Shown here: positions 4,392 through 53,773 of the stretch, in pieces
How positions within the stretch are numbered: the first letter of the stretch is position 1
Layout: every line of letters starts with the position of its first letter
Source of the DNA: an uncultured Candidatus Saccharibacteria bacterium
GTDB lineage: Bacteria > Patescibacteriota > UBA1384 > DTJR01
Assembly (NCBI GenBank): GCA_964487045.1
Contig: CAZAOT010000002.1
Span: 195,511-259,510, forward strand
Direction: 5' to 3'
Length of the DNA: 64,000 nt
The notes under the pieces: model-generated
What the model was told of the DNA's origin: nothing
The model's input: only the letters and a program-made list of their open reading frames with translations
Databases searched by the model: none
Made by a program: the position numbers and the translations under genes

Positions 4392-5111
4392 TTACATTAC
4401 CTCATCGGGTAGCAATTTTCCAAATTCATAAATGAAATGCTCGAGAATAATTTTATAGGCTTTCTCAAAAACTGCTTGGTTGGTTTTATATGAAGAAACT
4501 TGCTCAGTAGATAAGCTTGAAACTACTCTAAGAAGCTTAATCTCTTCCGGTTCTGCCAGCAGGCACTCACCCCCAGAACAATGATGGTGCGCTAACCCTC
4601 CTTTTAAGTCAAAAACAAAGTCATCGCTTGCCAAAATCTTCTTTTGACAAAAGGCGCAGTTGTCAAACTCTGGAAGCGACCCAAGATCGCGTAGTACCTC
4701 AATTATAAATTTTAAAAAAATAAGTTGACGCTTCGATAGCGAAATTGACTCAACTAAAGCACAAAGGGAAATATAAGTATTCGGATGCGCTTCGCCAAGC
4801 TCAAATAGCCTGTCTATTATCTTAAGAGCGTAAGAAATAGTCTGGGTCTTCTCATATTCACCCCTAGCGCCAAATGGATGATATATCGGATCAATTTCAG
4901 TAATAATATCAATCGATTTTGTCTTGTGCAGATGAAATCTAGCGATCGTGCCTAGATCGGAATTGGGACTTAAGCGATTTCCCGGACGCCTCGCTCCTTT
5001 GGCCAAGCCTTCTATTTTGCCTTCTTCTTTAGAAAATAATGTTAAAATACGATCTTTTTCCAAAAAATTTCTTCTTCTTAAAACTATTGCATTAACCTTA
5101 AAACTATTCAC
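4392..5111 (-). CDS. recO: DNA repair protein RecO.
   Basis: 239 aa with an N-terminal OB fold (KVNAIVLRRRNFLEKDRILTLFSKEEGKIEGLAKGARRP) and a C-terminal Cys-rich region (CAFCQ...HHHC) typical of RecO. Confidence 0.75.
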   Translation of the reverse strand: MNSFKVNAIVLRRRNFLEKDRILTLFSKEEGKIEGLAKGARRPGNRLSPNSDLGTIARFHLHKTKSIDIITEIDPIYHPFGARGEYEKTQTISYALKIIDRLFELGEAHPNTYISLCALVESISLSKRQLIFLKFIIEVLRDLGSLPEFDNCAFCQKKILASDDFVFDLKGGLAHHHCSGGECLLAEPEEIKLLRVVSSLSTEQVSSYKTNQAVFEKAYKIILEHFIYEFGKLLPDEVM

Positions 5112-5142
5112 ATAATAAACATATTAGATTGCTCCTAAAAAG

Positions 5143-5580
5143 CAATGGGCGCTCTTGACCGAAGTCATGAGCACCCTATGTGAACGGTAGCCGATACAAT
5201 GGCTACCAAGGAAGTGTTGGTGAGAGCCTTTCGGATTTTTGGCCGGCCCTCCTAGCCTCAGCGATCATTTTCTCAGGCTGATCGCAAGCAAACACCTGTA
5301 CGCAGTTGGCCGCTGTCTGGGTGCGGCGGCCCGCTCTAGCCACAGTGTGGCTAAAGCACGTGAACTAGCTAGGGATAACCCAACTTTCACTCCTCCTTGA
5401 ATGCTTTGTGCGAAGAACCCGATTGGCCCTTCGCCTCTCTTGCTTTTTTGTATCCCGCGAAAGGGATCAAAAAACCGCGCTTCGGGGCGCGGTTTCTGGG
5501 GGAAAATCATTTTAATGACTGTTACCTCAGAAACCGCCCTCCGATTTGTTTTTTGGAAACAAAAAGGACGCCCATTGGGG
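5143..5580. ncRNA. GC-rich structured non-coding RNA candidate, possibly RNase P RNA (rnpB). Strand and identity unresolved.
   Basis: About 440 nt of strongly GC-enriched non-coding sequence in an AT-rich genome. The two ends are complementary (caatgggcg at 5145-5153 with cgcccattg at 5566-5574). Segments resemble RNase P conserved regions. On plus: GGUGAGAGCC (like GGUAAGAGCGC) and CAGAAACCGCCC or GAAGAACCCGAUUGG (like ACAGAACCCGGCUUA). On minus: GGAGGAGUGAAAGUUGGGUUAUCC (like GGAGGAAAGUCCGGGCUCC). Several stable hairpins are present, including one with a UUCG loop. The 81-, 69- and 64-aa ORFs predicted here are rejected. Confidence 0.4.
5466..5495 (-). terminator. Hairpin (ccgcgc-UUCGgg-gcgcgg) with a T6 run on the minus strand. 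Either an intrinsic terminator or an internal helix of the structured RNA.
   Basis: Perfect 6-bp GC stem with a UUCG-type loop. Read on the minus strand it is followed by TTTTTTGA. Confidence 0.35.
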
Positions 5581-5676
5581 AGTGTGAATTCCTAATTGAT
5601 GTGTAATTATTATTCATAGCAAATTAAAGAATATCTAACTTGTTCTTACCTGTCAATACCAACCTTAGTATTATAT

Positions 5677-5726
5677 CGCAAAAAGCGAGGAAAGTCAAGC
5701 CCAGCCCTCCTTTTGGCAGGCTGGGC
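5677..5726 (-). terminator. Rho-independent terminator downstream of the nucleotidyltransferase gene.
   Basis: 8-bp stem gcccagcc/ggctgggc, followed on the minus strand by a T-rich tract. Lies about 90 nt downstream of the stop at 5818. Confidence 0.5.
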
Positions 5727-5817
5727 GCCGACCCCTCTCTCTAGACCCGAAAACGAACACGAACATATAGTTCGAGTGAGCTATCGAGTTAGAGGGAGCG
5801 GGTCAAGCACATTTATC

Positions 5818-6621
5818 TTAGTTCCTCGATTTAAGTATTCTCTCGGCTTCTTCCTTATCCTCAGAGGTATTTATTCCAAGCGCCTCGCTTATATCATCTA
5901 TCTCAACAGTTTCTACTTTTTCGCCCTCGGCGATGGCCATCTCTACAATAGTATTAATATAATATTCTTTTTTGACCGGACTCATCTGAATTTTTGGAAG
6001 CGATGCAAATAACCATTTATTGTTAACGACAAAAATACTGGGGCTTTTTTCGGCGATTTTAAGCTGTTCGTCGGTTGCCTCCGGAACTTCCACTATCCCT
6101 AGGACTTTTCCCTGATCATCCCTTACTACCCTCCCATAACTATCAAATTTCTCCCGATCTATAACAGTTGCAAAAGTTAAGGTTGCTCCAGTTTCGGTAG
6201 CATGATTAATCATTTTTTCAAATGTTTTTTCGCTATAGAGTGCATGATCACCGTTGGAAATAAGCGTAAGTCCTTCTTCATCCTCCAAAAGCGCTTCGGC
6301 TTGCCTGACCGCATGGGCAGTTCCCAGTTGATCCTTTTGCCAAACATACTCACTTTTATCACCTAGATAATCAATCACCTGATTACCTAGAAAGCCAACT
6401 ACTGTCACAATCCTATCAACAATCCCCTTTTCCTTTAATTTTAGAAAAGGAGAAATCGACCAGTGAATAATTGGCTTGCCGGCGACTTCAAACATAACCT
6501 TTGGCTTGTCCGAGGCACCAATCCTTGTTCCTTTTCCGGCCGCCATCAAAACTACAAATATTTTATAATTGTTAACCATAATATCTCTATTTATCTTTTT
6601 ATAAATATACCAATTATTCAC
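5818..6621 (-). CDS. Sugar-phosphate nucleotidyltransferase. GlmU N-terminal-like uridylyltransferase domain only, with no acetyltransferase domain.
   Basis: VVLMAAGKGTRIGASDKPKVMFEVAGKPII...QLGTAHAV matches the NTP-transferase G-x-G-T-R signature and GlmU/RmlA-type motifs. The real start is probably the internal Met at 6579 (MVNNYKIF...). Confidence 0.7.
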   Translation of the reverse strand: MNNWYIYKKINRDIMVNNYKIFVVLMAAGKGTRIGASDKPKVMFEVAGKPIIHWSISPFLKLKEKGIVDRIVTVVGFLGNQVIDYLGDKSEYVWQKDQLGTAHAVRQAEALLEDEEGLTLISNGDHALYSEKTFEKMINHATETGATLTFATVIDREKFDSYGRVVRDDQGKVLGIVEVPEATDEQLKIAEKSPSIFVVNNKWLFASLPKIQMSPVKKEYYINTIVEMAIAEGEKVETVEIDDISEALGINTSEDKEEAERILKSRN

Positions 6622-6905
6622 TCTTGTTCAAGGTAAACCCCGTTAGAGAAGACAGCTCATTCACTTCAATTTATTAGCAATATTAGACTGCTAGCACCTG
6701 GAACAAACAACTCACCGCCGATAGAAATCCGTGGCCCTTCTCTAACGGGGTAAAAACAAAGGGGATAGGTGTTTTTGATCGTTGGCCCTCCAGCCTTAGA
6801 TCTAAACACATATCCCCTAAATGGATAGGAAACTTCCTTCCTTGAAGTATAGTTTCCAGAAATTCATGCCCGCCTGCCTTCCCAAGAATGCAGGATAACT
6901 AAAAA

Positions 6906-6958
6906 CCCAGTGACTCTCCCGTCACTCGGCCAGTCAGCAGGACTCTCCCGTCCTGGGG
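6906..6958 (-). terminator. Compound terminator-like structure: two adjacent hairpins with identical loops, closed by an outer stem, then a T-run on the minus strand.
   Basis: Plus strand reads cccag-[gtgac tctccc gtcac]-tcggccagtcag-[caggac tctccc gtcctg]-ggg. On the minus strand the structure is followed by GGGTTTTTAG. It sits 11 nt past the stop of the minus-strand ORF ending at 6969. Confidence 0.45.
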
Positions 6959-6968
6959 CCCAAAGCTG

Positions 6969-7214
6969 TCAAGCAGCTATACCAGCAGCCTGACGCAAGT
7001 CAGAGGCGCGATTCGGGTCAACTCCTCGCTCGCGTTTGCAGCTCTTGCATCTCTCGACAAGCCTGTGACCATCAAAGATCACTCGGCGGCCCTTCTTGAC
7101 CTTGGTGCCGATGACCATCTCGCGGCACTTTCCGTCGCAGCCTTCGCATCGGCGCTTCGCCCATTCGCCCCGGTACAGGACCCTAGTTATGACATGATTG
7201 TCCGACGGCATCAT
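6969..7214 (-). CDS. Hypothetical small basic Cys-rich (zinc-ribbon-like) protein, GC-rich island.
   Basis: 81 aa with CEGCDGKC...CKSC. Part of a tightly packed same-strand array with gaps of 10-25 bp. About 60% GC. Confidence 0.4.
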   Translation of the reverse strand: MMPSDNHVITRVLYRGEWAKRRCEGCDGKCREMVIGTKVKKGRRVIFDGHRLVERCKSCKRERGVDPNRASDLRQAAGIAA

Positions 7215-7224
7215 CTGCCTCCCT

Positions 7225-7554
7225 CTACGCTATTCGTTCGATCGGTTCGCCCGATAAGCTGAACCAGTTGGGGCCATTCTGCTTGTGGGAACAGATCATC
7301 CTGTATCCCCGATCACTCTTCTCGAGCATCTCGGTGACCTGACGGCCACAATAGAATAGCATCTTCGCGATCGCGAGTAGCCTGATCTCCTCGCTCGCTC
7401 CGCCGCCAACTGCTACCCTACCGTAGGTATGCAAAAGCGGCATCGGCGTGAGAAATTCATCAAGCTGATCCGGCGTCGCGACTCCTTCCGGAATAGTGAC
7501 GAGCTGACAGACCAGCCCGCCAATCGAAACGAAACCCGTACTACAGTCTTTCAT
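7225..7554 (-). CDS. Hypothetical protein, GC-rich island.
   Basis: 109-aa ORF in the same tightly packed minus-strand array. No family recognised. Confidence 0.4.
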   Translation of the reverse strand: MKDCSTGFVSIGGLVCQLVTIPEGVATPDQLDEFLTPMPLLHTYGRVAVGGGASEEIRLLAIAKMLFYCGRQVTEMLEKSDRGYRMICSHKQNGPNWFSLSGEPIERIA

Positions 7555-7568
7555 CTAAACCTCCCTTA

Positions 7569-7814
7569 TCACTGACCGGCAGCAGGCCAGCCACCACAGA
7601 CGTTCATGGTTGCAAGGCTGTGCGTGCGAAGCTCGTATGCTCGTTTCGCGAGCTCTAGCTCTTCGGCAGTTAGCTCGATCCGACTTGTACATAGACAGGA
7701 GCGGTGGAAATCAGGTTCTTCTCCTTCTTGGTCAGACTCGACTGCGAAGACCCTGGTCTGTCCGTCACACCTACTACAGTGCTTTGCGTGCCCTAAGTCT
7801 ACAATTGCCATCAC
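7569..7814 (-). CDS. Hypothetical small Cys-rich protein, GC-rich island.
   Basis: 81 aa with CSRCDG...CLC...CGGW. Same-strand array. The overlapping plus-strand ORFs are taken as GC-rich artefacts. Confidence 0.4.
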   Translation of the reverse strand: MMAIVDLGHAKHCSRCDGQTRVFAVESDQEGEEPDFHRSCLCTSRIELTAEELELAKRAYELRTHSLATMNVCGGWPAAGQ

Positions 7815-7839
7815 TCAACCTCCAGAATTCCATCAGTAG

Positions 7840-8238
7840 TTATTTATCCTTGAACGTAACTCGCCACTGCCCTTCGACGTGATCGTAGTCTTCAACTTCA
7901 AAGACGTTTGGCTTATGCTTGACCACATCCTCCTCCTCAGGCAAACCTTCGAGAAAGCCAGCCGACCCGCATGTTGTACAGATACGCAGTCTCATCATGC
8001 AGTAGAATCGGCGCTCTAGTCTCTCCTCAAGTTCGTCAGGAGGATGATAACTGTCTAGGCGCGCAACAAACGAAGTTCCGCCACATTCACAAGGCTTTGG
8101 AACCCCGTAAATGAGCGCTTCGTGAATCAACTCTGGAGCACCCATGCACTCTCCTCCTTTATGACTCTTTTTGTCAATCTTGTCGGCTCTCGACATATGT
8201 CGAAAGCTCACAGATAGACAAACCCGCACACTTTTCAA
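7840..8238 (-). CDS. Hypothetical Cys-rich protein, GC-rich island. The real start may be the internal Met giving about 100 aa.
   Basis: Contains PKPCECGG...CTTCGSAG motifs. Has its own upstream AT-rich spacer that could hold a promoter. Confidence 0.4.
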   Translation of the reverse strand: MKSVRVCLSVSFRHMSRADKIDKKSHKGGECMGAPELIHEALIYGVPKPCECGGTSFVARLDSYHPPDELEERLERRFYCMMRLRICTTCGSAGFLEGLPEEEDVVKHKPNVFEVEDYDHVEGQWRVTFKDK

Positions 8239-8318
8239 CCTCTCGCAGTATCCCTATTCGTGAATCTGCGAATAGGTTTCAAAGTGAGGGGTTATTTTTG
8301 GGATTCTTTTTTTAAGGT

Positions 8319-8346
8319 ACAAAAACAAAAACCGGCTCGAGGCCGG
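8319..8346 (-). terminator. Palindromic hairpin (ccggc-tcgag-gccgg) preceded on plus by an A-run, so a minus-strand terminator.
   Basis: The perfect palindrome ccggctcgaggccgg has a T-run after it on the minus strand. Confidence 0.4.
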
Positions 8347-8670
8347 TAGCAATTCTTGTGTTTTATTTTACAAACTAAATCGCCCGGCCTCCGTTGTCGG
8401 TAAAATAAAACCAAAAATTAACATTCATCAATTTCATTATTTAATAATTTATCAAACAAAAAATACTCTGTCAATCCCTCACTCTTAGTCGATATTGATG
8501 TATACAATTTTAATTTGACTCATGGTGTTTGATTCAATTATCTTCTTCCTAAAAATAAAATTCGAAACGGCATCAACTATCAAACACTTTGATTTGCAAT
8601 CATGAAGATACATATAAGTTTCTTTTGATATTGCATCTGATGATGCGAATCGACTAAGAGTGAGTGATCA

Positions 8671-8706
8671 AGAAAAGAGGGCCGTTGCGTCAAGAGACGC
8701 AACGAC
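8671..8706 (-). terminator. Rho-independent terminator after the standalone LeuA regulatory-domain gene.
   Basis: Stem of 8-9 bp, cgttgcgtc-aagag-acgcaacg. Read on minus it is followed by CCCTCTTTTCTTG. Lies about 30 nt downstream of the stop at 8736. Confidence 0.55.
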
Positions 8707-8735
8707 CCGTAATCATTTTGGCAGTATTAACCCTA

Positions 8736-9170
8736 CTATGTCATAACTGCCAGCTTATAAGCGTCCAGGATTGCCATCCAGCCGGCATGGTCCTGGTTCT
8801 GGTGTTCAGCCACCGAGACCCAATGCTCAGAACCTCGGCGAAACTTGACAATGCAACGGACGATTCCGCCTGGCGACCGATTGCCATCCCGCTTGATCAG
8901 CTCGATGTGATAGTCGTACAAAGTAATCGAGTCGATCTTGGGAAGCATCTCTGCTATCGCCTTGTGCAAGGCGCAATCAAAAGCGTCGATAGGTCCGACG
9001 CCATCACCCGCCGAGTGAGCTTGGCGACTACCTACTTCAACCTTGACGGTTGCTTCGGTGTTTGGTTCCTCCCCACTCCAGGTAGTATTCAGCGTGATGT
9101 TGGTTACCGCAAAAGGTTCGCCGGCTCCAGCATCCTTCAGTTCCCGTATTCGCTCTTGGACGTTTATCAT
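8736..9170 (-). CDS. Standalone LeuA allosteric/dimerisation (regulatory) domain protein.
   Basis: 144 aa. GDGVGPIDAFDCALHKAI...IVRCIVKFRRG parallels the C-terminal LeuA_dimer domain of the adjacent leuA ([15 protein letters not shown]...). Immediately downstream of leuA on the same strand. Confidence 0.55.
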   Translation of the reverse strand: MINVQERIRELKDAGAGEPFAVTNITLNTTWSGEEPNTEATVKVEVGSRQAHSAGDGVGPIDAFDCALHKAIAEMLPKIDSITLYDYHIELIKRDGNRSPGGIVRCIVKFRRGSEHWVSVAEHQNQDHAGWMAILDAYKLAVMT

Positions 9171-9208
9171 AACGATCCCCTTCTGAAGAGTTAGGCAGTC
9201 ATAACCCG

Positions 9209-10750
9209 CTAGTGGCCGTTGCCATTGTCCAGCATGATCAGACGATTGACGGCATTGACCAAAGCCATTGCAGAGGCACGAACAACGTCAGTATCAGCCG
9301 CGCGACCCGTCACTTCACGACCTTTTTCGTCCTTCACGTGAATGGTCGCCTCGCCGATCGCGTCGCCGCCGCGAGTAACCGATCGGACTGAGTAGTCAGA
9401 GATCTCTAGCTCGATCCCTGTGATCCGCTGAATCACGTTGAAGGCGGCATCTACCGGTCCGTTGCCGAGCGACACATTTTCGAATTCTGCTTCGCCTTTT
9501 CTGAGAATCATCGTCGCTTGAGGCTTCAGCAGACCACCTGTTATTGTCGTCAAGCTGACGAGTGACCAGAAATCCATCCCCTCGGGCACATCGGAGCCCA
9601 TTTCGGTCATGATAGCGACTAGATCCTCATCGAAGACTTGCTTCTTGTTGTCAGCTAGTGCCACAGCTCGCTCGTAGATCTTGGCCAGCTCTTCGTCGTT
9701 GACTGTATAACCGAGCTCCTTGAGCCTAGCTCGATAACCGTGCTTGCCGGAACGAGGCCCGAGGGGCAAAGCTGTCTCGGTGCTGGACCAGCCGACATCA
9801 GCCGGATCCATGATTTCGTAGGTCTGACGATCCTTGAGCATACCATGCTGATGGATACCTGCTTCATGCCGGAACGCATTCGAGCCCACGATAGCCTTGT
9901 TCGGCTGAACAACGAAGCTCGAGTATTGCGACACTAGCTTCGAGGTCCCAACCAGATGCTTGGTGCAGATATCGGTGTAAGCGTCGAACTGATCAGATCT
10001 TGTCTTCAGAGCCATGACCACTTCTTCGAGTGAGCAGTTGCCCGCTCTCTCACCGATGCCGTTGATGGTGCACTCGACTTGACCTGCTCCCGCACGGATT
10101 GCAGCGAGAGAATTGGCAGTAGCCATGCCTAGATCATTGTGGTTGTGCACGCTGATCGTTGCCTGTGAAATGTTCGGCACATTGGTGATCAAATCAACAA
10201 TCACCGCTTCCATGATCCAAGGCATGGTATAGCCGACCGTGTCAGGGATGTTGACCGTGGTCGCACCAGCCTCGATAACTGTCTGAACGACGAGGCGCAG
10301 GTACTCGCGATCAGTGCGCATGGCATCCTCAGCCGAGAACTCGACATCATCGCATAGAGTCTTGGCAAACTGAACGGCCGAGCGGGCAAGCTCGAGAACT
10401 TCCTCGTAGGTCTTCTCGAACTTCCTCTCGACGTGTAGCGGTGAAGTGCCGATGAAAGTGTGAATCCTGCGACGGCTCGCTGGGGCAATTGCCTCGGCGC
10501 AGGAAACGATGTCGCTCTCGTTGGCACGACAAAGTCCGCAGATGATCGGGCCATCAACCTGCTCGGCGATGGCTTGAACGGACCGGAAGTCGGCCGGCGA
10601 AGAGAAAGGAAAGCCTGCCTCAATGACATCTACGTTGAGCTGGGCCAGTCTTTTAGCAATGGCCAGCTTCTCATTCAGACTCATACTCGCACCGGGTGAT
10701 TGCTCACCATCACGAAGCGTCGTGTCAAAGATTGTGATCCTACGACTCAT
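9209..10750 (-). CDS. leuA: 2-isopropylmalate synthase (LeuA / citramalate synthase family) with a C-terminal regulatory domain.
   Basis: 513 aa. N-terminal [19 protein letters not shown] is the HMGL-like TIM-barrel signature, with [21 protein letters not shown] and a C-terminal LeuA_dimer domain. GGGAGG Shine-Dalgarno lies 7 nt before the ATG. About 58% GC against roughly 35-40% in the flanks. Confidence 0.9.
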
Positions 10751-10830
10751 GATACTACCTCCCAGATTTCGGGCGCTGTGCGCCCTTCGTTTATGCTAAA
10801 ACAAAAAGCACAAACGCCCGATTCCAGGCA

Positions 10831-10862
10831 AAAGAAAAACCGCCTGTGTAGGCGGCTTTTCT
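10831..10862. terminator. Bidirectional hairpin terminator (ccgcc-tgtgta-ggcgg) with an A-run on one side and a T-run on the other.
   Basis: Lies between leuA and the 88-aa ORF. On the minus strand the hairpin is followed by TTTTTCTTTTG. Confidence 0.45.
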
Positions 10863-11086
10863 GATTCGTGTGTAAAAAGGTACGGAAGCTTTATTGCCGC
10901 CAAGTAAAGTCTAAGCCTAGTAGTAGGCCAAGATTCACCAAAGCGGTTTTATTAATAAAGCTCCTCAACATAAGGAGATTCTAGCTTAATTAGATCAAAA
11001 ATGCAACACTATGATTTGCTATTTAATCTAAAAAAGAAAGCGGTCAACAACTGCCCGCTTGGTACGCATCGTTCTGATGCAATGAC

Positions 11087-11353
11087 TTACCGGCGTCTGC
11101 GACGCCGCGATTGACGAAAGGCCCTAGCCCTAGGCGACATTGTCGGAAATCCGGATGCAGTCATCGCTTCAACCGCGTCTCCTCTTCCTACCATGATCAG
11201 CCCGTCGAGAGCACTCGGTGCTTCGGCAATGCGCCCTCGGACAATTCCAGTAGCCTGATTGCGCTGCTGATACCGATCGAATGCAGCCCTCATCACCGCT
11301 CTGGTAACTTTCATTAAGTCACCTCCGTAGGCAAAAAATATCATTTTAGACAC
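11087..11353 (-). CDS. Hypothetical small protein with a poly-Arg C-terminus, at the edge of the GC island.
   Basis: 88-aa ORF ending RQSRRRRRR. No homologue recognised. An overlapping plus-strand ORF also exists. Confidence 0.3.
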   Translation of the reverse strand: MSKMIFFAYGGDLMKVTRAVMRAAFDRYQQRNQATGIVRGRIAEAPSALDGLIMVGRGDAVEAMTASGFPTMSPRARAFRQSRRRRRR

Positions 11354-11431
11354 AAAAAAACAATCCTATCCAAACATCCTGACCGACTTATTGTGAGTAT
11401 TTACAAATAAACTTGCCTAAAAAGCCTGTTC

Positions 11432-12298
11432 TCAACGCTGACAAATTGGGCAATAATGAGTACCCCTACCACCCACAACTACTCTCTTCACCTTACCGCA
11501 ACCACCCGGACATTGATTTCCAGTTTTTCGATATATTTTAAAATGATTCTGCATCTGGCCTGTTTTGCCGTCGATATCAACAAATGTATTTTCACTCGAG
11601 CCGCCATATTCAAGACCCATCTTAAGGACTTTTCTTATACAATCAATTAATTTAGTAAGCTCTACTCGCTTGACATCTTTAGCCAGTCGAAGAGGTGAAA
11701 TACCAGCGCAAAACAACGACTCATCCGCATAGATATTACCAATCCCAGCAATATTAGTTTGATCCATTAGTATTTGCTTGATTTTACTCTTTGGTCTGCG
11801 GGAGATAACGCTCATCAAATATTCCTCGGTCAATTCTTTTGTAAAAGGGTCTGGCCCGAGCCCCTTCAGCTCTCGCGTATCTTTAATTTTATCTTGGTCA
11901 AAAACCTTTATGTATCCAAATTTCCTAAGATCGTTAAAATATAAAACGCTTCCGTCTTTAAATTTAAAAATTACGTGAGTAAATTTATTTGGCAAATCCG
12001 CTACCCAATCATTGGATGGATGGCCTCCTGCCATTCGTTCACACTTATCTCCCGGTTTTTTATCGAAAATTAGTTGGCCGGTCATTTTCAAATGTATCAA
12101 AAGTGCTTTGCCGTTTGATAAATCAACTTCAATCATTTTGGCGTGTCTAGAAATTGACTTGGCCTTGCTTCCGACAACATCTGAGACTTCGCCGCTAAAA
12201 AGCTTCTTAGCCCTAATCTCAACTTCGACAATTTCTCGGCCGAGAATCTTACTTTCCAACCCTCTCTTTACAATTTCAACTTCGGGTAGCTCTGGCAT
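11432..12298 (-). CDS. mutM: Formamidopyrimidine-DNA glycosylase (Fpg/MutM).
   Basis: N-terminal MPELPEVE catalytic motif, an H2TH domain and a C-terminal zinc finger CPGGCG...THYCPICQ. Confidence 0.9.
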   Translation of the reverse strand: MPELPEVEIVKRGLESKILGREIVEVEIRAKKLFSGEVSDVVGSKAKSISRHAKMIEVDLSNGKALLIHLKMTGQLIFDKKPGDKCERMAGGHPSNDWVADLPNKFTHVIFKFKDGSVLYFNDLRKFGYIKVFDQDKIKDTRELKGLGPDPFTKELTEEYLMSVISRRPKSKIKQILMDQTNIAGIGNIYADESLFCAGISPLRLAKDVKRVELTKLIDCIRKVLKMGLEYGGSSENTFVDIDGKTGQMQNHFKIYRKTGNQCPGGCGKVKRVVVGGRGTHYCPICQR

Positions 12299-12299
12299 A

Positions 12300-12836
12300 T
12301 TATTTTTTTTCCTTAATTAGTAGAGCGGCCAGCGATGATCCCATTGAAATAATTTTATTATCGAGCACCATCTCAAAAACTTCATTCTTATCCATCAATA
12401 TAACTTCAATATCTTCGGTCACATCACCCGACTTTCGCTCTCCTTCTAGCAAGTGAGCATTTTTAGCATGGAAAATATGTATCTGACGATTAAGCTGCCC
12501 CATCGTCTCATAAAATTTCCCGAGTAACTCCAAACCTTCACATGTATAACCGGTTTCCTCTTCGAATTCGCGAATTACGCAATCCTCGATCGATTCGCCA
12601 GGATCGGAATGTCCAGAGGGAAATTCAAGTGCGACCTGATCTGGAAGATAACGAAACTGTTTAATCATGACAAGTTTATTGTCAGGTGTTTCCGCGACTA
12701 GCATTGCTGAGTCAGGACTGTTCCAATACAACCACTCTACTTGCTCCCCACTTGGAATTTCAACAATATCTTTATTGACTCGAAAATATTTATGATTAAA
12801 AACTTCCTCAGTTGAAATTTTATTCCAAGACTTCAT
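12300..12836 (-). CDS. NUDIX hydrolase (ADP-ribose pyrophosphatase-like).
   Basis: Nudix box GHSDPGESIEDCVIREFEEETGY. Confidence 0.8.
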   Translation of the reverse strand: MKSWNKISTEEVFNHKYFRVNKDIVEIPSGEQVEWLYWNSPDSAMLVAETPDNKLVMIKQFRYLPDQVALEFPSGHSDPGESIEDCVIREFEEETGYTCEGLELLGKFYETMGQLNRQIHIFHAKNAHLLEGERKSGDVTEDIEVILMDKNEVFEMVLDNKIISMGSSLAALLIKEKK

Positions 12837-12845
12837 TTTGAAAGA

Positions 12846-14942
12846 TTAGTTAGAGCAAGTAGCACTATTTAAAATACTTGAATTTAAACTATTTTCAAAT
12901 AAATAAACCCAATAGGCTTTTTTTGCTGAAATCTGAGAAACTTCGGGTAATATAGGATTTTGCGTTGAGCAGGTTGGTGAAAGCTTATCTACTCCTGTTA
13001 AAAGCGAAAAGACTGCACAAGCGTCAGACGACTGGGTGCTCTGAATAACAAAAACATTCGAATAAATTATTCTTGCGATTTTTAAATCTGACAAACTAAC
13101 ATTCTTAGCCAAACATTGCCCCTGGCGATTAATAATTGTATATCTCAAATCGCTAATATTTGATACTTGCTCATTCCAAAGCAAGTTCCATCCTGGTCTG
13201 AGCGATTTTTGCGAATCTGTTTGGCCGACTGAAGGTTGGTTTATGTTCGTATCCGCTGGAGAATAGATATAATACCCTCGGTTAGCCTGAAACGAAGCGG
13301 GCTGGCTAGATCCAGAAACATCCCATTTATTTTCCAACGAATTAAATCCAAATAAATACATCCCAGCCTGCAGCATTGAAGGTGCGAGCGCACTTCCATC
13401 GAACCCCAAAGTATTAAAACCCCTGTGTAGATTAATTGTATTATTAGTAGATACAGACACTGTTGGTGAAGCTGTCGGTGTTTGACCCTCTGGAATCATG
13501 CTAAGATTTAACGTAGGTGGAACAGAATTACTTACAACCAAACTTTGAGTAGTCGTTTGGTATCCAGACTTTTCCGCAACTATGTTCCAAGCCCCCTGCG
13601 AAAGAGAGAAGTATATAGCTCCGGAATTTGAGGTAACTCCTATATCTTTTACCAAATTATCTCCAATTATTGAGTAAGGTCCAGTTTGTTTTTGAACTTT
13701 TATCTTAACCCCAGACAAAGGCGTTGAGGCATCAGCTTTCTTAACTATGCCAACAACTGTTTCATTACCTCCCCCTGTAGAACTACCGTTAATAATAGGG
13801 CCTTGAGAATAATTACAACCAATTTTAATGCATGAAAATGACCATCCGCCTGAAGCGTCACTGCAAAAACCATCTGGGCAATTTGTTGATTGCAGGCCAG
13901 AGGCTTCGCAGGTTTGGCCATTCTGCCTCGGAATACAATTATGCAGGCCGATCGTCTTAAGCCTTGCCATATAATCAAAACTGCTCCCCATTTTGCTACC
14001 GCAGTATTGATTAGATAATTCTTCAGCCATCGACGTATTCGTCGTGTTTAGATATGGTGCTGCAATAGAATTTACTTCACAAAGCCTTTTATCGAACATC
14101 GTTCCACCGTGACATGTTGCATCTACTAGCTGACCATTGGCATATCTTTTTGAATCTTGATTAAAACTGTCACATTTACTTGCAATCATGGTCTCGCATG
14201 CGTCATTTAGACGCTCCTGGGTAACAGCAGCACCTATTTGGCAATATTTTGGATAAACCTGCTCATTGACACGTTTTAGGTTTTTACATTCGTCCAGACA
14301 CCTACAGCAGGAGTCGCTGTCTACCCCCTGCTCATTCTCGTCATTACCTTCTTCGCACATACAAGCATTCATTATTTTAGTTGGAGCCATCCTTGTCATA
14401 TCGTCCTGACAATGCGCCTGACATTCTCCAATATCAACCTTGGGATTGTTAGGATCACAATAATAGTCCATGGTGTCTTTGTAGCACGCTTGTTCTGAAT
14501 TATCAGCCTTAACGTCATTACATTTGGGCATCATCGGACTACCATTAGGCGGGGTGCAAGCCTTAGTCATCATCCCTCTGATTGCACAACAATTTTGAGC
14601 ATTATTGAGAGTATCTTCACCTGAGTAGCTCTTACATTGATTAATGTTAGTGAACTGACTATAGGAATAGTCGCCAGTAGACAAACCTTGCCCAGTGCAC
14701 ATTGCCTCCGGAATGGTAATAGAACAAGATCCTGTTTCTGTAGTCTGAGTAGGATATTGGGAAGTCTCGCAACTAACATGAATAGTCGGGCAAGTCTGCT
14801 GGCAACCGGGAGGAAAATAAGATACTGAATCTGCTGATATTTTATTTCGAATAAAACGTCCAGCTAAAAAAGAGAGACCAAATAGTAGCAAAGCTATCAA
14901 CAAAAACCTCAACCCCCACTTTAGCTTCCCCATTTTCTTCAT
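12846..14942 (-). CDS. Secreted Cys-rich surface protein with a CarboxypepD_reg-like domain and a conserved C-terminal domain shared with the ORF at 25074-25988.
   Basis: 698 aa. Has a signal peptide (MKKMGKLKWGLRFLLIALLLFGLSFLAG), more than 50 Cys in the central region, a VVGIVKKADASTPLSGVKIKVQ beta-sandwich region, and a C-terminal GWNLLW...AYWVYLF block. Confidence 0.65.
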   Translation of the reverse strand: MKKMGKLKWGLRFLLIALLLFGLSFLAGRFIRNKISADSVSYFPPGCQQTCPTIHVSCETSQYPTQTTETGSCSITIPEAMCTGQGLSTGDYSYSQFTNINQCKSYSGEDTLNNAQNCCAIRGMMTKACTPPNGSPMMPKCNDVKADNSEQACYKDTMDYYCDPNNPKVDIGECQAHCQDDMTRMAPTKIMNACMCEEGNDENEQGVDSDSCCRCLDECKNLKRVNEQVYPKYCQIGAAVTQERLNDACETMIASKCDSFNQDSKRYANGQLVDATCHGGTMFDKRLCEVNSIAAPYLNTTNTSMAEELSNQYCGSKMGSSFDYMARLKTIGLHNCIPRQNGQTCEASGLQSTNCPDGFCSDASGGWSFSCIKIGCNYSQGPIINGSSTGGGNETVVGIVKKADASTPLSGVKIKVQKQTGPYSIIGDNLVKDIGVTSNSGAIYFSLSQGAWNIVAEKSGYQTTTQSLVVSNSVPPTLNLSMIPEGQTPTASPTVSVSTNNTINLHRGFNTLGFDGSALAPSMLQAGMYLFGFNSLENKWDVSGSSQPASFQANRGYYIYSPADTNINQPSVGQTDSQKSLRPGWNLLWNEQVSNISDLRYTIINRQGQCLAKNVSLSDLKIARIIYSNVFVIQSTQSSDACAVFSLLTGVDKLSPTCSTQNPILPEVSQISAKKAYWVYLFENSLNSSILNSATCSN

Positions 14943-36713: not shown

Positions 36714-38264
36714 ATGAAATGTTTAATTTACTCACGAGTTAGTACCGAAGACCAAGCAGAAAAGGGACGATCAATTGGTGACCAAATCAAAATGTGCAAA
36801 AGATATGCTGATGACAACGGCTATCGCATTATAGATATATTCAAGGATGAAGGAAAAACTGCTACAAATATGAATCGGGCAGGGCTACAAGATCTAATCA
36901 TTAAATGTCAGGAAGAAAAGGATATAGCTTGTGTACTTGTACAAGACACGGATCGTCTTGCAAGGAACACATCCGATCATCTCCAAATAAAAGCGATTCT
37001 GAAAAAAGCAGGAGCAAGGGTAATCTCTATTAGCCAACCAATGCTTGATGACGAAACCCCCGAGGGTCAATTTATGGATTTGGTTATTGCAGGGGTAAAT
37101 GCCTTTCAGTCAAAAATTACAGGAAGAAAGGTGAGTAAATGCATGAAAGAGAAATTTCTTGAAGGTGTGTGGCCTAGCTGGGTAACCGTTGGATATATTA
37201 ATGACGATATCGGAACTCTAGAAAAACCTATGAATGTAATCTCAGATGATAAATTCAAACAGCCACTTATAAAGGAAGCTTTTAGATTATTCTCAAAAGG
37301 AATCTATAGCGTGGAAGAAGTCAACGACATAGTCTTCAAAAAGGGCTTAACCGGAAGGCATGGAAAAAAGATGTCTCCATCAGAGCTAAATAGGGTATTG
37401 AAAAACCCTTTTTATTTTGGATTGATGCGGTGGAACGGATTGGAAAAAATGGGTACGCACACTAAGATCATTACTAAATCTCTATTTGACCAGTGTCAGA
37501 ATGTTTTTATTGAACGCAATATGATGGCTAATCGTGAAAGAAAACATAACTTCCTATTAAGAGGTTTTGTCTACTGTGGAACTTGTGGAAAAAGATTGAC
37601 CGCTGAGTATCATGGCTCTAAATTTTATTACCATTGTGCTTCAAAACTTCATAGCAACAAAGGACAAAATTTTGATGGGGATACTACCGAAGCGAGAATT
37701 GAGCAATTGTTTGACCAACTTAAGTTACCAGATGACTTTACAAAAAAAGTATTTTCAAAAGCGGAGGAAATACTTAAGAATTCGCGTGTTGAAGTTAACC
37801 AGACAAAAAGAACTCTTAATGCACAAAAAGCAAAATTAGAAACAAAGAGAGACTCAATTGAAGATAGATTACTTGAAGGAGTAATTACCTCTGATGTATA
37901 TGTAAGGCAACATAATAGCGTTGAGGAGCAAATAAAAAATATTGAGAAACAGCTTGATGACGCAAATCATAATAAAAATGAGAATATAAAAGTTTTTGAA
38001 AAATTGATGTTTTTATCTGGAAATTTAGGAGAAGCTTACCGACTAGCTAATCCAAGAATCAAAAGGCATTACCTAACAATATTTTGGGATAGAATTGAAA
38101 TCAAAAATCATAAGATAAAAAAAGCGGTCCCGACAAAGACCTACTTAAAATTATTTCCTGGCATGAACTATAACAAACCTGAAAATTTGGTTGCGAACCA
38201 TAAAATTATAAAAGAACGAAATTGGAGGGCCGAGTGGGATTCGAACCCACGACCAATTGCTTAA
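36714..38264 (+). CDS. Large serine recombinase (integrase) of the tRNA-Lys-associated element.
   Basis: 516 aa. Resolvase-type catalytic domain (LIYSRVSTEDQ...DQ...DRLARN), a recombinase domain, a zinc ribbon (CGTCGKRLTAEYHG...YYHC) and a coiled-coil tail. The last 14 codons read into the tRNA-Lys 3' end, so the gene overlaps the att core. Confidence 0.85.
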   Translation: MKCLIYSRVSTEDQAEKGRSIGDQIKMCKRYADDNGYRIIDIFKDEGKTATNMNRAGLQDLIIKCQEEKDIACVLVQDTDRLARNTSDHLQIKAILKKAGARVISISQPMLDDETPEGQFMDLVIAGVNAFQSKITGRKVSKCMKEKFLEGVWPSWVTVGYINDDIGTLEKPMNVISDDKFKQPLIKEAFRLFSKGIYSVEEVNDIVFKKGLTGRHGKKMSPSELNRVLKNPFYFGLMRWNGLEKMGTHTKIITKSLFDQCQNVFIERNMMANRERKHNFLLRGFVYCGTCGKRLTAEYHGSKFYYHCASKLHSNKGQNFDGDTTEARIEQLFDQLKLPDDFTKKVFSKAEEILKNSRVEVNQTKRTLNAQKAKLETKRDSIEDRLLEGVITSDVYVRQHNSVEEQIKNIEKQLDDANHNKNENIKVFEKLMFLSGNLGEAYRLANPRIKRHYLTIFWDRIEIKNHKIKKAVPTKTYLKLFPGMNYNKPENLVANHKIIKERNWRAEWDSNPRPIA

Positions 38265-38297
38265 GAGGCAACTGCTCTACCGCTGAGCTATCGGCCC
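38223..38297 (-). tRNA. tRNA-Lys(CTT).
   Basis: Hand-folded. Acceptor GGGCCGA/TCGGCCC, D-arm GCTC-AGCGGTA-GAGC, anticodon stem GTTGC/GCAAT with loop CTCTTAA (anticodon CTT), T-arm GTGGG-TTCGAAT-CCCAC. CCA is encoded. Confidence 0.8.
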
Positions 38298-52231: not shown

Positions 52232-52308
52232 GCGCCCTTAGCTCAGATGGATAGAGCGACTCCCTTCTAAGGAGTAGGTCGCAGGTTCGAATCCTGCAGG
52301 GCGTACCA
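52232..52308 (+). tRNA. tRNA-Arg(TCT).
   Basis: Acceptor GCGCCCT/AGGGCGT (G1-U72). Anticodon stem ACTCC/GGAGT with loop CTTCTAA (anticodon TCT). T-arm GCAGG-TTCGAAT-CCTGC. CCA is encoded. Confidence 0.8.
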
Positions 52309-52426: not shown

Positions 52427-53773
52427 CTAACGAATTACCGAGATCTTCTTATCTTTCAAACTCATCTTAATTTTCAAACAGTTTAGGAGTTCTCGTTTTT
52501 CTTCACGAGACCCCTCACGAAGTACGAACTTTGAGTAATCTCTTAGATCCACTTTATTTTCTAAGTCCCTACTGACTTTCTGCTTTAATATTTTTGACAT
52601 AAATCTTTCATATCGTTCAATCTCGCTGTTGAGATGTTTTTGAGTGTTTAACGAATCGATATTGACTTGATCGATAATTTCACAAATTTGATCGGTCACA
52701 TCTTCTTCGCGAATGTAGGGCTGTTTACAGTCGCGATCTTTTCCACCAGTGCAATGATAGTAGACATATCTTCGAATTACTCCGTTGTCTTGCCGTTTGA
52801 ACTTCTCTTCGGCCGTCACGCCAGAACCACATACACCGCAGTAAATTAACTTAGTGAAATCGAATTCTTTGGTTCCTGGACGAGATTTAGGAATAATTGC
52901 CAATCTTGCCTGAACTTTATCAAATAGTTCCTTGGTAATGATCGATTCATGTCCGGCTTGATACCAAACGCCCGATCCCTTTGGATATTCGAAAGAGCCG
53001 TAATAATAATGATTGTTTAAAATTGCATAAACCGAGCTCAACACAACTAACCGACCTTGTCTGCTCCTAAAATCTATTGAGTTAAGCCAGCCGAGTACTG
53101 TTCTACCGCTTTCCCCATGGGAAACCCTTTCAAATATTTCTTTAATTATCGGAGCTCTTTCAGGATCTAAGAATATTTTCTTATAGCCTTTTTTACCACC
53201 AATTTCATTCAAGTAACCAAGCGGTGGAGCGCATGGTCTAAATCCCATCTCACATTTGGCCTTGAGCCCTCTTTTTACGTTAATGACTTTATTATCATTT
53301 TCTAACTTTGCCTGGCTTCCTAGAATCATCAACAAGAATTTATCGTTCGGTGAATTTGTAAACGTCTGATTAATTGTTCTGATTTCCAATAAATAATTCT
53401 GGTCCATCAGATCTACTAAAGTACCGAGATCGCCCGCGTTCCTACTTAAACGGTCTGGAGCCCAAGCAAGGATACCTTGAATTTTGTCTTCTCTAATATC
53501 TTTGATAATCGACATAAAAACAGGCCGTTCGCCTGAATTCTTTGCTGAATGACTTTCTTTTCTTATGTCAGCCACCTCCAAACCGTCTCTATCAGCAACC
53601 GTTAGCATTTCTTTCAACTGAGAATCAATCGACAAGGCTTGCAATTCGTCCCTCTCTGTCGATTTTCTTGCGTAAAGACAGAACTTGATCTTCTTATTTC
53701 CGGGCAATGTAGCTTCCATAGCAGAGAGGAAGGTACCGCAAGTGTTAGTTAAGTCAAGCAAAAACCCTTCCAT
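52427..53773 (-). CDS. Large serine recombinase (integrase) adjacent to the tRNA cluster.
   Basis: 448 aa. Resolvase catalytic domain (CLYARKSTERDELQALSIDSQ...DRLSRN), a recombinase domain and a zinc ribbon (CGVCGSGVTAE...YVYYHC). Confidence 0.85.
   Translation of the reverse strand: MEGFLLDLTNTCGTFLSAMEATLPGNKKIKFCLYARKSTERDELQALSIDSQLKEMLTVADRDGLEVADIRKESHSAKNSGERPVFMSIIKDIREDKIQGILAWAPDRLSRNAGDLGTLVDLMDQNYLLEIRTINQTFTNSPNDKFLLMILGSQAKLENDNKVINVKRGLKAKCEMGFRPCAPPLGYLNEIGGKKGYKKIFLDPERAPIIKEIFERVSHGESGRTVLGWLNSIDFRSRQGRLVVLSSVYAILNNHYYYGSFEYPKGSGVWYQAGHESIITKELFDKVQARLAIIPKSRPGTKEFDFTKLIYCGVCGSGVTAEEKFKRQDNGVIRRYVYYHCTGGKDRDCKQPYIREEDVTDQICEIIDQVNIDSLNTQKHLNSEIERYERFMSKILKQKVSRDLENKVDLRDYSKFVLREGSREEKRELLNCLKIKMSLKDKKISVIR

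Follow-up and report, generated by a model that had tools for sequence, protein, structure and literature searches.

Attenuation by leader peptides is a textbook mechanism: the enterobacterial leu leader is a known attenuator of the leucine operon, and the E. coli pheL type stands for the phenylalanine attenuators of pheA and pheST. Regulation in trans has its own precedent in IlvN and IlvH, the small trans-acting regulatory subunits of acetohydroxyacid synthase. Patescibacteria are commonly described as having no amino acid biosynthesis and simple regulation. Here we analyze a 64,000-nucleotide (nt) stretch of contig CAZAOT010000002.1, hereafter the window, which contains a GC-rich island encoding LeuA (2-isopropylmalate synthase), a standalone LeuA-type regulatory domain and a set of very small proteins. 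We read the island, with somewhat better than even confidence, as a block of foreign composition that is conserved in a small group of related AT-rich genomes and organized as three transcription units on the minus strand. One unit would be a lone open reading frame (ORF) of 75 amino acids (aa); another, a leucine-controlled operon with promoter, leader, terminator, leuA and the standalone LeuA-type domain; and the last, an aromatic-controlled operon for four tiny proteins, three of them zinc-ribbon-like. That leader-peptide attenuators precede both operons is a point not raised in the original prediction, an earlier note on the same DNA. Among published systems, Corynebacterium diphtheriae encodes a leu leader peptide ahead of leuA, and its ilvB leader is leaderless (PMC5784534); in a survey of 125 Patescibacteria genomes, genes for amino acid biosynthesis were very scarce in the transferred set, with 11 horizontal transfer (HT) and 18 genomic island (GI) genes (PMC12455944).

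The compositional boundaries of the island emerge from GC scans in 300-nt windows across the island and in 1-kb windows across the whole 64 kb. A block of ~4.6 kb, at 6.75–11.35 kb, has 50–59% GC, against 39% elsewhere. In the 300-nt windows, GC climbs from 0.39–0.42 at 6.45–6.9 kb to 0.49–0.59 over 6.75–8.25 kb, drops to 0.30–0.33 at 8.25–8.70 kb, recovers to 0.52–0.58 for 8.7–10.8 kb, dips to 0.42 at 10.8–11.1 kb, and stands at 0.49–0.51 at 10.95–11.4 kb before settling at ~0.40. Within the 64 kb, 1-kb windows above 0.48 GC occur solely at 6.5–11.5 kb (mean 0.398, standard deviation 0.040). The genes tell the same story: GC at third codon positions (GC3) is 0.50–0.655 in the seven island genes, or z = 5.3 to 10.4 relative to the 47 host ORFs (0.341 ± 0.030, maximum 0.432), and synonymous codon choice for Leu, Arg, Phe and Tyr differs between the two sets. 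A Shine–Dalgarno (SD) match of at least 4 nt, of the GGAGG type, precedes 7/7 island genes, compared with 15/47 host genes. The predicted GC-rich island in an AT-rich genome is thus borne out by GC, GC3 and codon usage alike; the island is compositionally foreign and partly adjusted to the composition of its host.

All seven island genes lie on the minus strand between an NTP-transferase gene (5818–6621) and fpg (11432–12298). The 3′ end of the small-ORF operon is marked by twin hairpins on the minus strand (6909–6926 and 6938–6955), with the sequences CAGGAC-GGGAGA-GTCCTG and GTGAC-GGGAGA-GTCAC, the latter followed by GGGTTTTT. The two hairpins have in common a 12-nt direct repeat, GACTCTCCCGTC, in two copies 29 nt apart; a terminator scan matches at 6926–6909, and the pair is almost unaltered in a related locus, L107. 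Both flanking genes and the twin-hairpin terminator are therefore present as the original prediction described them. Judged as a genomic island, the block has the deviant composition and, for leuA alone, the affinity to a distant taxon; it lacks the hallmarks of mobility, and its distribution is not sporadic. No recombinase domain was found in the island proteins, and the nearest tRNA gene lies at 24.7 kb of the window. No empty island site was found, Fpg homologues in GTDB representative genomes, which do not include the host species, being at most 44% identical. A search of Rfam at gathering thresholds, covering the whole window and five related loci, assigned no part of the island to a riboswitch, T-box or leader family, and at E values up to 1 positions 4900–11500 gave no match, T-box (RF00230) included.

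The leucine attenuator occupies 10830–10971 on the minus strand, upstream of leuA. Its leader ORF (10971–10891) encodes 26 aa, 7 of its 26 codons being Leu, including CUA CUA CUA, in the pattern L-G-L-L-L-G-L. This ORF is kept in the related loci L087 to L089 and L094, and as a peptide in three loci: MLRSFINKTALVNLGLLLGLDFTWRQ in the window, MTRSFNITGILNLSLLLGLDFDWRR in L087 and MLRSIINLSALNLDLLLGLDFAWRR in L094. Over the 230 nt upstream of leuA (188–244 nt aligned), the window shares 77% nucleotide identity with L087 and with L094, far more than proteins of 63–69% identity would lead one to expect. The terminator, GCCGCCUACACAGGCGG followed by a U-tract, lies at ~10862–10830 (stem ~10862–10838), and the consensus fold combines it with a long hairpin over the leader ORF that has four compensatory pairs. 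Leader codons 24–25, GGCGGC, are complementary to the 5′ arm of the terminator, GCCGCC, and may thereby form the antiterminator; both elements are invariant, so covariation lends this pairing no support. A putative promoter (TTGCAT, 17 nt, TAGAAT; 10978–11006, minus strand) was read from the sequence and alignment; its −35 is weak and it is absent from the promoter-scan list. The leader ATG falls 6 nt past the −10 TAGAAT, so that translation is probably leaderless. Between the attenuator terminator and the ribosome-binding site (RBS) of leuA lies a conserved GC hairpin (10771–10785, minus strand).

This anatomy fits a classical attenuation cycle. When charged tRNA-Leu is scarce, the ribosome would stall at CUA CUA CUA, opening the long leader hairpin; the freed GGCGGC would pair with GCCGCC, and leuA and the free domain would be read through. 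With ample leucine, a ribosome at the stop codon would mask GGCGGC and the terminator would form. Like the leu attenuators of enterobacteria and of Corynebacterium (PMC5784534), the element combines a leader ORF bearing a run of Leu codons, an intrinsic terminator, a mutually exclusive antiterminator overlapping the end of the leader ORF, and leuA downstream, and its leaderless start recalls that of C. diphtheriae ilvB (PMC5784534). It differs in having no sequence or Rfam similarity to them, in its longer 26-aa peptide with the LGLLLGL pattern, in controlling leuA and a standalone domain rather than leuABCD, and in its probable Patescibacteria setting. In the literature searched, we found no report of attenuation or leader peptides in Patescibacteria.

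The original prediction treated the AT-rich spacer at 8.26–8.70 kb as a mere interruption of the island. The low GC stands, but the spacer is no simple gap: it holds a terminator, an insert, a promoter and an attenuator. On entering from the leuA side one meets the intrinsic terminator of the leuA/standalone-domain operon (8679–8708, minus strand; 13-pair stem and T-tract) and then a 195-bp insert (8474–8668) resembling a miniature inverted-repeat transposable element (MITE), with 20-bp terminal inverted repeats that are 95% complementary. The insert is single-copy in the window and sits between the upstream terminator T-tract and the −35 of the next promoter. In L108 and L109, which lack it, a terminator-like T-tract runs straight into TTGACA, placing the insert outside the conserved module. 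The contigs L087, L088 and L089 (SRR30681657–59) all end soon after the standalone-domain gene, and at that place a different inverted repeat is present, in the tail of L088 as well as in the head of L109, which suggests an insertion hot spot at this position of the spacer.

Past the insert, a promoter-like site on the minus strand (TTGACA, 17 nt, TG-n-TAAATT; 8446–8474; 10/12 in the promoter scan, with TG) precedes the aromatic attenuator (8324–8437, minus strand). Its −35 TTGACA is invariant in three aligned loci and can also be read in L093 and L094. The leader ORF (8437–8375; MKLMNVNFWFYFTDNGGRAI) begins 8 nt past the −10 and is therefore near-leaderless; its control codons specify F-W-F-Y-F, within the run F-W-F-Y-F-T-D. 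The terminator (8347–8331 plus T-tract; ACCGGCCUCGAGCCGGU and U-tract, 8347–8325, in the terminator scan) alternates with a predicted antiterminator, GGAGGCCGGGCGAUUU paired with GAAUUGCUACCGGCCUC, for which RNAalifold gives a consensus of 20 pairs, three of them compensatory. The aromatic leader ORF occurs in five loci (the window, L094, L108, L109 and L093), and a covariance model built from these five copies finds them again at 81–128 bits, its weaker matches being further leader-peptide attenuators. Both the leucine and the aromatic leader thus have a codon-enriched leader ORF, an intrinsic terminator and a 5′ antiterminator strand at the end of that ORF; neither matches Rfam. Just 5′ of the RBS of the first small gene, s101, lies a conserved hairpin, TCGACATATGTCGA, with the motif CAAGATTGACAA (8171–8203, minus strand). 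The motif is invariant in the window, L108 and L109, where the hairpin arms vary in the alignment yet still pair, and hairpin and motif are kept in L108 and L109 unlike the preceding 180 nt. They may serve as an operator or in the control of translation.

What lies behind such leaders elsewhere supports the amino acid assignments. Behind the aromatic leader of L093 come a prephenate dehydrogenase/prephenate dehydratase (PDH/PDT) fusion and an aminotransferase; that of L098 precedes a prephenate dehydratase (read by eye) and then DAHP synthase, and these aromatic-pathway genes back the reading of an aromatic sensor. Isoleucine-type leaders with 3–4 Ile codons (AIIIAIII, AIIII, SIIII), together with terminators, are found in L094 (1936–2051; MKLLAIIIAIIITPAQAVAVS), L093 (1671–1785; MIYSAIIIINFITPLAAVVC) and L103 (~4560–4717; MSKKVPKEIISIIIINMNQPSGWRVF). 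Those in L094 and L093 precede unannotated ORFs of 85 and 72 aa downstream of leuA, and that in L103 precedes a citramalate synthase gene on a 31%-GC contig. For the window, scarcity of charged aromatic tRNAs would favor the antiterminator, readthrough and production of the four small proteins. The likeness to the pheA and pheST attenuators lies in the Phe-rich leader with Trp and Tyr, in the terminator/antiterminator alternatives, and in the aromatic-pathway genes that follow this type of leader in L093 and L098. The difference is that in the window, L094, L108 and L109 the leader drives tiny zinc-ribbon-like proteins rather than a tRNA synthetase or biosynthetic enzymes, and that it has no Rfam match.

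The enzyme behind the leucine attenuator is full-length, as had been claimed. leuA (9209–10750, minus strand) encodes 513 aa with HMGL-like, HCS_D2 and LeuA_dimer domains (PF00682, PF22617 and PF08502), its own PF08502 domain spanning residues 371–504. It scores 718 bits against NF002086 (cut-off 532) and 661 bits against TIGR00973 (cut-off 598.7); residues 2–355 align with the Neisseria meningitidis 2-isopropylmalate synthase structure 3RMJ (E 5e-120), and the catalytic motifs TLRDGEQ, HxHNDLG and GERAGN are all kept. The ratio of nonsynonymous to synonymous divergence (dN/dS), 0.125 against L087, indicates purifying selection, and the regulatory domain is the part diverging fastest. By its sequence, LeuA is an intact 2-isopropylmalate synthase, with 2-oxoisovalerate as the substrate predicted from its family. 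It resembles the short-form enzymes (NF002086/TIGR00973; 3RMJ) in curated score, TIM-barrel, subdomain and C-terminal regulatory domain. The setting is another matter: its nearest relatives have a T-box and a downstream peptidase M16 gene in high-GC surroundings, whereas here there is an attenuator and a standalone domain.

That standalone domain is a 144-aa protein (8736–9170, minus strand) consisting of a LeuA allosteric/dimerization domain with no catalytic domain; PF08502 matches residues 23–139 at 49.9 bits (E 4e-13; cut-off 24.9). The original prediction was right that a separate LeuA_dimer-only protein exists. It was not split off from LeuA, which retains its own copy. The possibility that it duplicates the C terminus of LeuA was considered and rejected, the C terminus of the citramalate synthase model scoring far higher (E 5e-15, versus 0.03 for leuA_bact). 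Its best NCBIfam region is positions 411–514 of the citramalate synthase model TIGR00977, and its relatives in Joint Genome Institute (JGI) metagenomes, at 25–38% identity, are all C termini of full-length citramalate-synthase-like proteins. A 5.8-billion-protein database held no close relative, and there was no PDB sequence match. The protein is an extra, divergent, citramalate-synthase-like copy of the regulatory domain. In L087 the orthologue (149 aa, 41% identical) starts within an overlap with the leuA stop codon; this overlap suggests translational coupling to leuA and a complex with LeuA. By analogy with IlvN and IlvH, the protein could be a trans-acting regulatory subunit of LeuA, perhaps adding isoleucine-type sensing. 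The likeness is that of a small protein with nothing but a regulatory fold, encoded right behind—and in L087 overlapping—a branched-chain catalytic gene; the differences are that LeuA_dimer is not an ACT fold and that LeuA has a regulatory domain of its own, making this an analogy and not a homology.

A comparable arrangement was seen in L098 (Ga0066639_10000773, which also carries ComEC and NDK). At 6783–12753 this contig encodes CimA, a standalone LeuA_dimer protein of 170 aa and a long-form LeuA, with an aromatic leader, MNIRTNNWFFGFSFFTDR; it is AT-rich, with 0.36 GC overall (range 0.29–0.44). As in the island, a condensing enzyme, a free regulatory domain and an aromatic attenuator occur together. 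The composition, however, is native and AT-rich, LeuA is of the long form (PF22615), biosynthetic genes rather than small ORFs follow the attenuator, and the standalone domain is ~26–33% identical to that of the island over part of its length. That the pairing recurs in native AT-rich composition implies that the architecture is no accident of the island.

The third unit holds four small genes on the minus strand. In order from the aromatic attenuator, these are s101 (7840–8145), encoding a 101-aa protein with a CxCGG...CxxCG pattern; s81b (7569–7811, ORF 7569–7814; SD GGAGG), an 80-aa zinc-ribbon-like protein ending in GGWPAAGQ; s109 (7225–7554), a 109-aa member of a rare family; and s81a (6969–7211, ORF 6969–7214; SD GGGAGG; GC3 0.65), a basic, zinc-ribbon-like 80-aa protein with two CxxC pairs. 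The sizes of 81–132 aa given earlier do not hold for the longest, an ORF of 132 aa (7840–8238) whose likeliest start, an ATG at 8145 behind AAGGAGG, most probably makes it 101 aa. The CxxC-type clusters attributed to all four are present in three, as paired CxxC or CxC, and absent from the 109-aa protein. Compared with L107, the small ORFs have dN/dS of 0.21–0.29 and dS of 0.62–0.77 (s81a: 0.27 and 0.68; C-terminal part of s81b: dN/dS 0.29). Coupled with their RBSs, coding-type GC by codon position and the conserved Cys pattern of the s101 family, these values indicate that the four are real genes under purifying selection.

Their families are almost without members. Searches returned very few relatives of s101 or s109, the s101 family having three cluster representatives among 1.84 billion. 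One representative, L109, was assembled from the sample that also gave L087 and continues with s109-like genes and zinc-ribbon ORFs; in a second, L108, the aromatic leader again lies upstream, and s101- and s109-like genes are present; and a relative of s109 lies downstream of another leuA in L094. For s109 there is also a weak DTD-like hint. For s81b there is a weak relative in L109 (86 aa, ...GWLPAGL; BLASTP E 0.01, the database being tiny) and one recognized by eye in L094 (48 aa, ...GWLCAGY). None of the small proteins matched PHROG or PADLOC, s81a was likewise without a Pfam or NCBIfam match, and the BFVD viral fold search gave no match at E ≤ 0.001. It is conceivable, at low confidence, that they are starvation-induced factors associated with nucleic acids or translation. 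The lone gene of the first unit, s75 (11087–11314; 75/88-aa ORF 11087–11353; minus strand), encodes an Arg/Ala-rich protein of 75 aa with GC3 0.51, has the SD GGAGGTGA and its own terminator, and is called as a gene in the Logan contigs L001 and L002. It is found only in this lineage; L087 has an unrelated 52-aa ORF at its position, and profile searches found no family match for s75.

The island is not confined to the window. L087 has the gene order uvrA-uvrC-DUF192-galK-CBM9-fpg, the 52-aa ORF, leuA and the standalone domain; its host proteins are 69–83% identical to those of the window (DUF192, 46%), its LeuA (P0008) is 68% identical, and its leuA has 55–60% GC against flanks of ~41%. Island modules also occur in L094, L093, L095, L108 and L109. 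The island is accordingly a lineage feature of related AT-rich genomes, not a one-off acquisition. Of the high-GC donor that the original prediction proposed, foreign origin stands—the nearest named LeuA proteins, at 63–69% identity, are from Armatimonadota on contigs of 63–65% GC, and LeuA lies in a clade with proteins labeled Armatimonadota—while private, recent acquisition does not, L087 carrying the same block. That note had also named leuA homologues of like GC in the lineage as a finding that would tell against its view, and L087 at least partly supplies one. Relative to the genomic islands reported for Patescibacteria (PMC12455944), the block is similar in deviating in composition from the streamlined genome around it and in having donors from beyond the phylum; it differs in having no mobility genes and in being conserved across diverged relatives.

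The Armatimonadota-like loci themselves offer clues to the source. The higher-GC contigs L086, L090 and L110 encode no free regulatory domain; the gene that comes after leuA there is for a peptidase M16. L110 (363–672) and L086 (7306–7645) have a T-box before leuA, full-length at 53–56 bits, below the gathering score (E 3e-11 and 1.5e-10, respectively), with two tRNA genes just upstream in L110. With T-box control in these loci, it is the coding sequence of the island, not its regulatory region, that resembles that lineage. The coding sequence of leuA would then have come from an Armatimonadota-like, high-GC lineage with T-box-controlled leuA. The GC3 of leuA is 0.88 in L110 and L086, 0.735, 0.73, 0.71, 0.69 and 0.63 (the window) in attenuator-bearing loci, and 0.34 in host genes, a series that looks like partial amelioration. 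In one of these loci, L093 (6.2 kb), GC is a mosaic: 0.61 in leuA, 0.42 in the PDH/PDT fusion, 0.58 in the aminotransferase and 0.43 in a ROK kinase, which suggests that other such genomes are also a patchwork of foreign biosynthetic genes.

A closer comparison is provided by L107. There the sequence corresponding to window positions 6560–6850 is ~99–100% identical, identity is 94% at the edge of the island, and the small ORFs are 58–94% identical in 50-nt windows. A near-identical flank beside a cassette with dS of ~0.7 points to allele replacement, and to descent that is not strictly vertical. Homologous recombination may exchange cassette alleles, and such exchange would retard the drift toward host composition. 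A diversity-generating retroelement was considered as the source of the differences between window and L107 and rejected, there being no adenine bias and dN/dS being 0.2–0.3.

How else might the block be explained? Least probable is a chimera of assembly or binning, with a GC-rich fragment of another organism fused to a Patescibacteria contig. The compositional break is indeed sharp, and several Logan contigs terminate at hairpins or inverted repeats within the island. Yet both junctions and the spacer recur in the assemblies of SRR11845623, SRR11845624 and SRR11845625, whose Logan contigs, found by exact-protein look-ups, tile the island: L001 extends from uvrC via fpg and leuA to the standalone domain; L002 covers the stretch between the 75-aa ORF and the start of the first small ORF, spacer included; and L083, L084 and L085 hold the small ORFs, with L083 and L084 extending to the NTP-transferase gene. 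The left junction recurs in L107 (SRR27710321, of another accession series), where the small ORFs are joined to the same host flank, and the fpg–leuA junction recurs in the related genome from SRR30681657–59. We consider a chimera very unlikely on the basis of these separate run-level contigs, not of read coverage. A recent, private event in which a high-GC donor passed an orphan leuA block to one reduced genome would explain the strong deviation in GC and GC3, the Armatimonadota affinity of the nearest named LeuA, and why the ORFs scanned across the 64 kb include no other amino acid biosynthesis gene. It is nonetheless improbable: leuA and the free domain follow fpg in L087 too, amid host proteins mostly 69–83% identical; leaders and small-ORF families recur in L093, L094, L108 and L109; a GC3 of 0.63, midway between 0.88 (donor-like) and 0.34 (host), implies long residence; and the closest LeuA is just 69% identical. 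Quite improbable as well is that the island is what remains of a prophage, defense island or mobile element with leuA as cargo. Small, fast-diverging, unannotated ORFs, strain-to-strain replacement of the cassette and a MITE-like insert in the spacer are all features one might expect of such a remnant. Against these stand the lack of any PHROG or PADLOC match for the small proteins, the absence of the aromatic-leader pattern and of s101 or s109 relatives from viral contigs, the absence of a significant match in the viral structure library and of an integrase, tRNA gene or att-like repeat, and the amino acid attenuators, a form of control typical of metabolic operons.

Single, ancient acquisition followed by strictly vertical descent is a stronger competitor, unlikely in our estimate though well short of negligible. 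Under this explanation, high GC would be kept by selection or slow mutation, and the window LeuA would be fast-evolving. It accommodates the homologous leaders (77% nucleotide identity), the position of leuA after fpg and the free domain in both genomes, an apparent excess of shared A/T four-fold sites between window and L087 (32 versus ~18 expected, a rough estimate from overall GC3), and the 32/54 quartets with mid-clade taxa that pair the two island LeuA proteins. It is at odds with four-fold sites that are 66% different between window and L087, near saturation, though both copies are GC3-rich; with the L107 cassette alleles at dS ~0.7 beside a near-identical flank; and with a LeuA in L087 that is far closer to Armatimonadota than to the window. 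In fact, several observations weigh against our own reading of a conserved foreign island as well. The L087 LeuA is 81% identical to Armatimonadota P0002 and 68% to the window LeuA, and in distance quartets the window and L087 proteins are not sisters and additive distances misfit, a conflict over history. The identical flank in L107 extends only ~290–340 nt and is partly structured, so constraint may explain some of its identity. The sampled Armatimonadota-like contigs hold no relatives of the standalone domain or the small ORFs, and no integrase, tRNA gene, flanking direct repeat or att repeat was found at the island to account for its entry. The working of the attenuators in this organism is predicted from anatomy and conservation, the folds suggested for the small proteins do not reach significance, and the host is probably a member of the Patescibacteria, an assignment drawn from Fpg at only 38–44% identity. 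A mosaic L087 LeuA formed by recombination was considered and rejected; a sliding window shows no N-terminal segment closer to the window LeuA. On whether there was one entry, or repeated entry or in situ replacement of the coding sequence, the sequence comparisons conflict.

The host assignment and the remainder of the window complete the picture. Among GTDB species representatives, the best Fpg matches are at 38–44% identity, and the top ones are mostly labeled Patescibacteria (Collierbacteria, Saccharibacteria, Buchananbacteria, Komeilibacteria). Elsewhere the window holds genes for MraZ/MraW, alanine racemase, RecO, UvrABC, GalK, ABC transporters and a two-component system, as well as two restriction-modification islands and two large serine recombinases; the ORFs scanned, in 64 kb of a contig of at least 283 kb, included no leuBCD, ilv or other amino acid biosynthesis gene. 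The block at 27.8–38.3 kb (GC 0.31–0.37) is probably an integrated element; besides an AlwI-like restriction enzyme and two DNA methylases it encodes a large serine recombinase (36714–38264), abutting tRNA-Lys (38223–38297). A second integrated defense island probably lies at 52.2–64.0 kb, where a large serine recombinase (52427–53773) adjoins tRNA-Arg (52232–52308); after it come type I restriction-modification genes (two hsdM, hsdS, hsdR), a UvrD-like helicase, Hypoth_Ymh and MauJ-domain proteins.

Nearer the island, the ORF-poor segment 5135–5585 (minus strand; ~430–450 nt; GC 0.51–0.53), between promoter-like sites at 5698–5628 and the start of recO, folds with a minimum free energy of −186.7 kcal/mol (z = −8.1 versus shuffled sequence) and a closing helix 5143–5156/5564–5577; it matched no Rfam family, was not called as a tmRNA and is a candidate for an unknown structured RNA. 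A perfect 15-bp inverted repeat surrounds 85 nt at 6637–6751, ~55 nt upstream of ATG 6579, the NTP-transferase start in the Logan gene call. It is unique in the window and has one mismatch in L107, and 6625–6965 folds with z = −4.3. The repeat may belong to a leader or regulatory RNA, or be what is left of a MITE. On the other side, a 698-aa Cys-rich protein (12846–14942), with an apparent hydrophobic, signal-like segment at its N terminus and no Pfam family on record, is encoded together with a NUDIX protein in the interval that separates fpg from the CBM9-domain gene. CBM9 and fpg are adjacent in L087, which marks the 698-aa/NUDIX pair as a lineage-specific insertion.

A bolder interpretation, which we regard as doubtful, is that Patescibacteria-like symbionts possess a foreign "amino acid starvation regulon," in which leucine, aromatic and, at sister loci, isoleucine attenuators sense charged tRNA and drive the committed, feedback-controlled step of leucine synthesis with a trans-acting subunit, plus a hitherto undescribed set of tiny zinc-ribbon effectors, its GC being kept up by repeated recombinational replacement. 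If that were true, the leucine step would possibly feed a pathway shared with the host cell, and the replacing DNA would come in part from GC-rich organisms, Armatimonadota-like and perhaps the host.

In essence, the island is of a known kind, horizontally derived and under classical attenuators; what is unusual is its setting and its cargo. Behind a classical leucine attenuator, a lineage that is probably patescibacterial retains a foreign leuA on which purifying selection acts, and an attenuated, selected leuA implies that the cell senses its own charged tRNA-Leu and ties the enzyme to leucine supply. The wiring of aromatic and, at sister loci, isoleucine sensing to tiny proteins of near-memberless families offers a handle on the starvation response. 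A condensing enzyme paired with a free allosteric domain, recurring in an unrelated AT-rich contig, hints at an undescribed trans regulation of LeuA/CimA-type enzymes. Finally, the GC3 series and the replacement of alleles between strains make the island a natural system in which amelioration can be set against recombination in reduced genomes.

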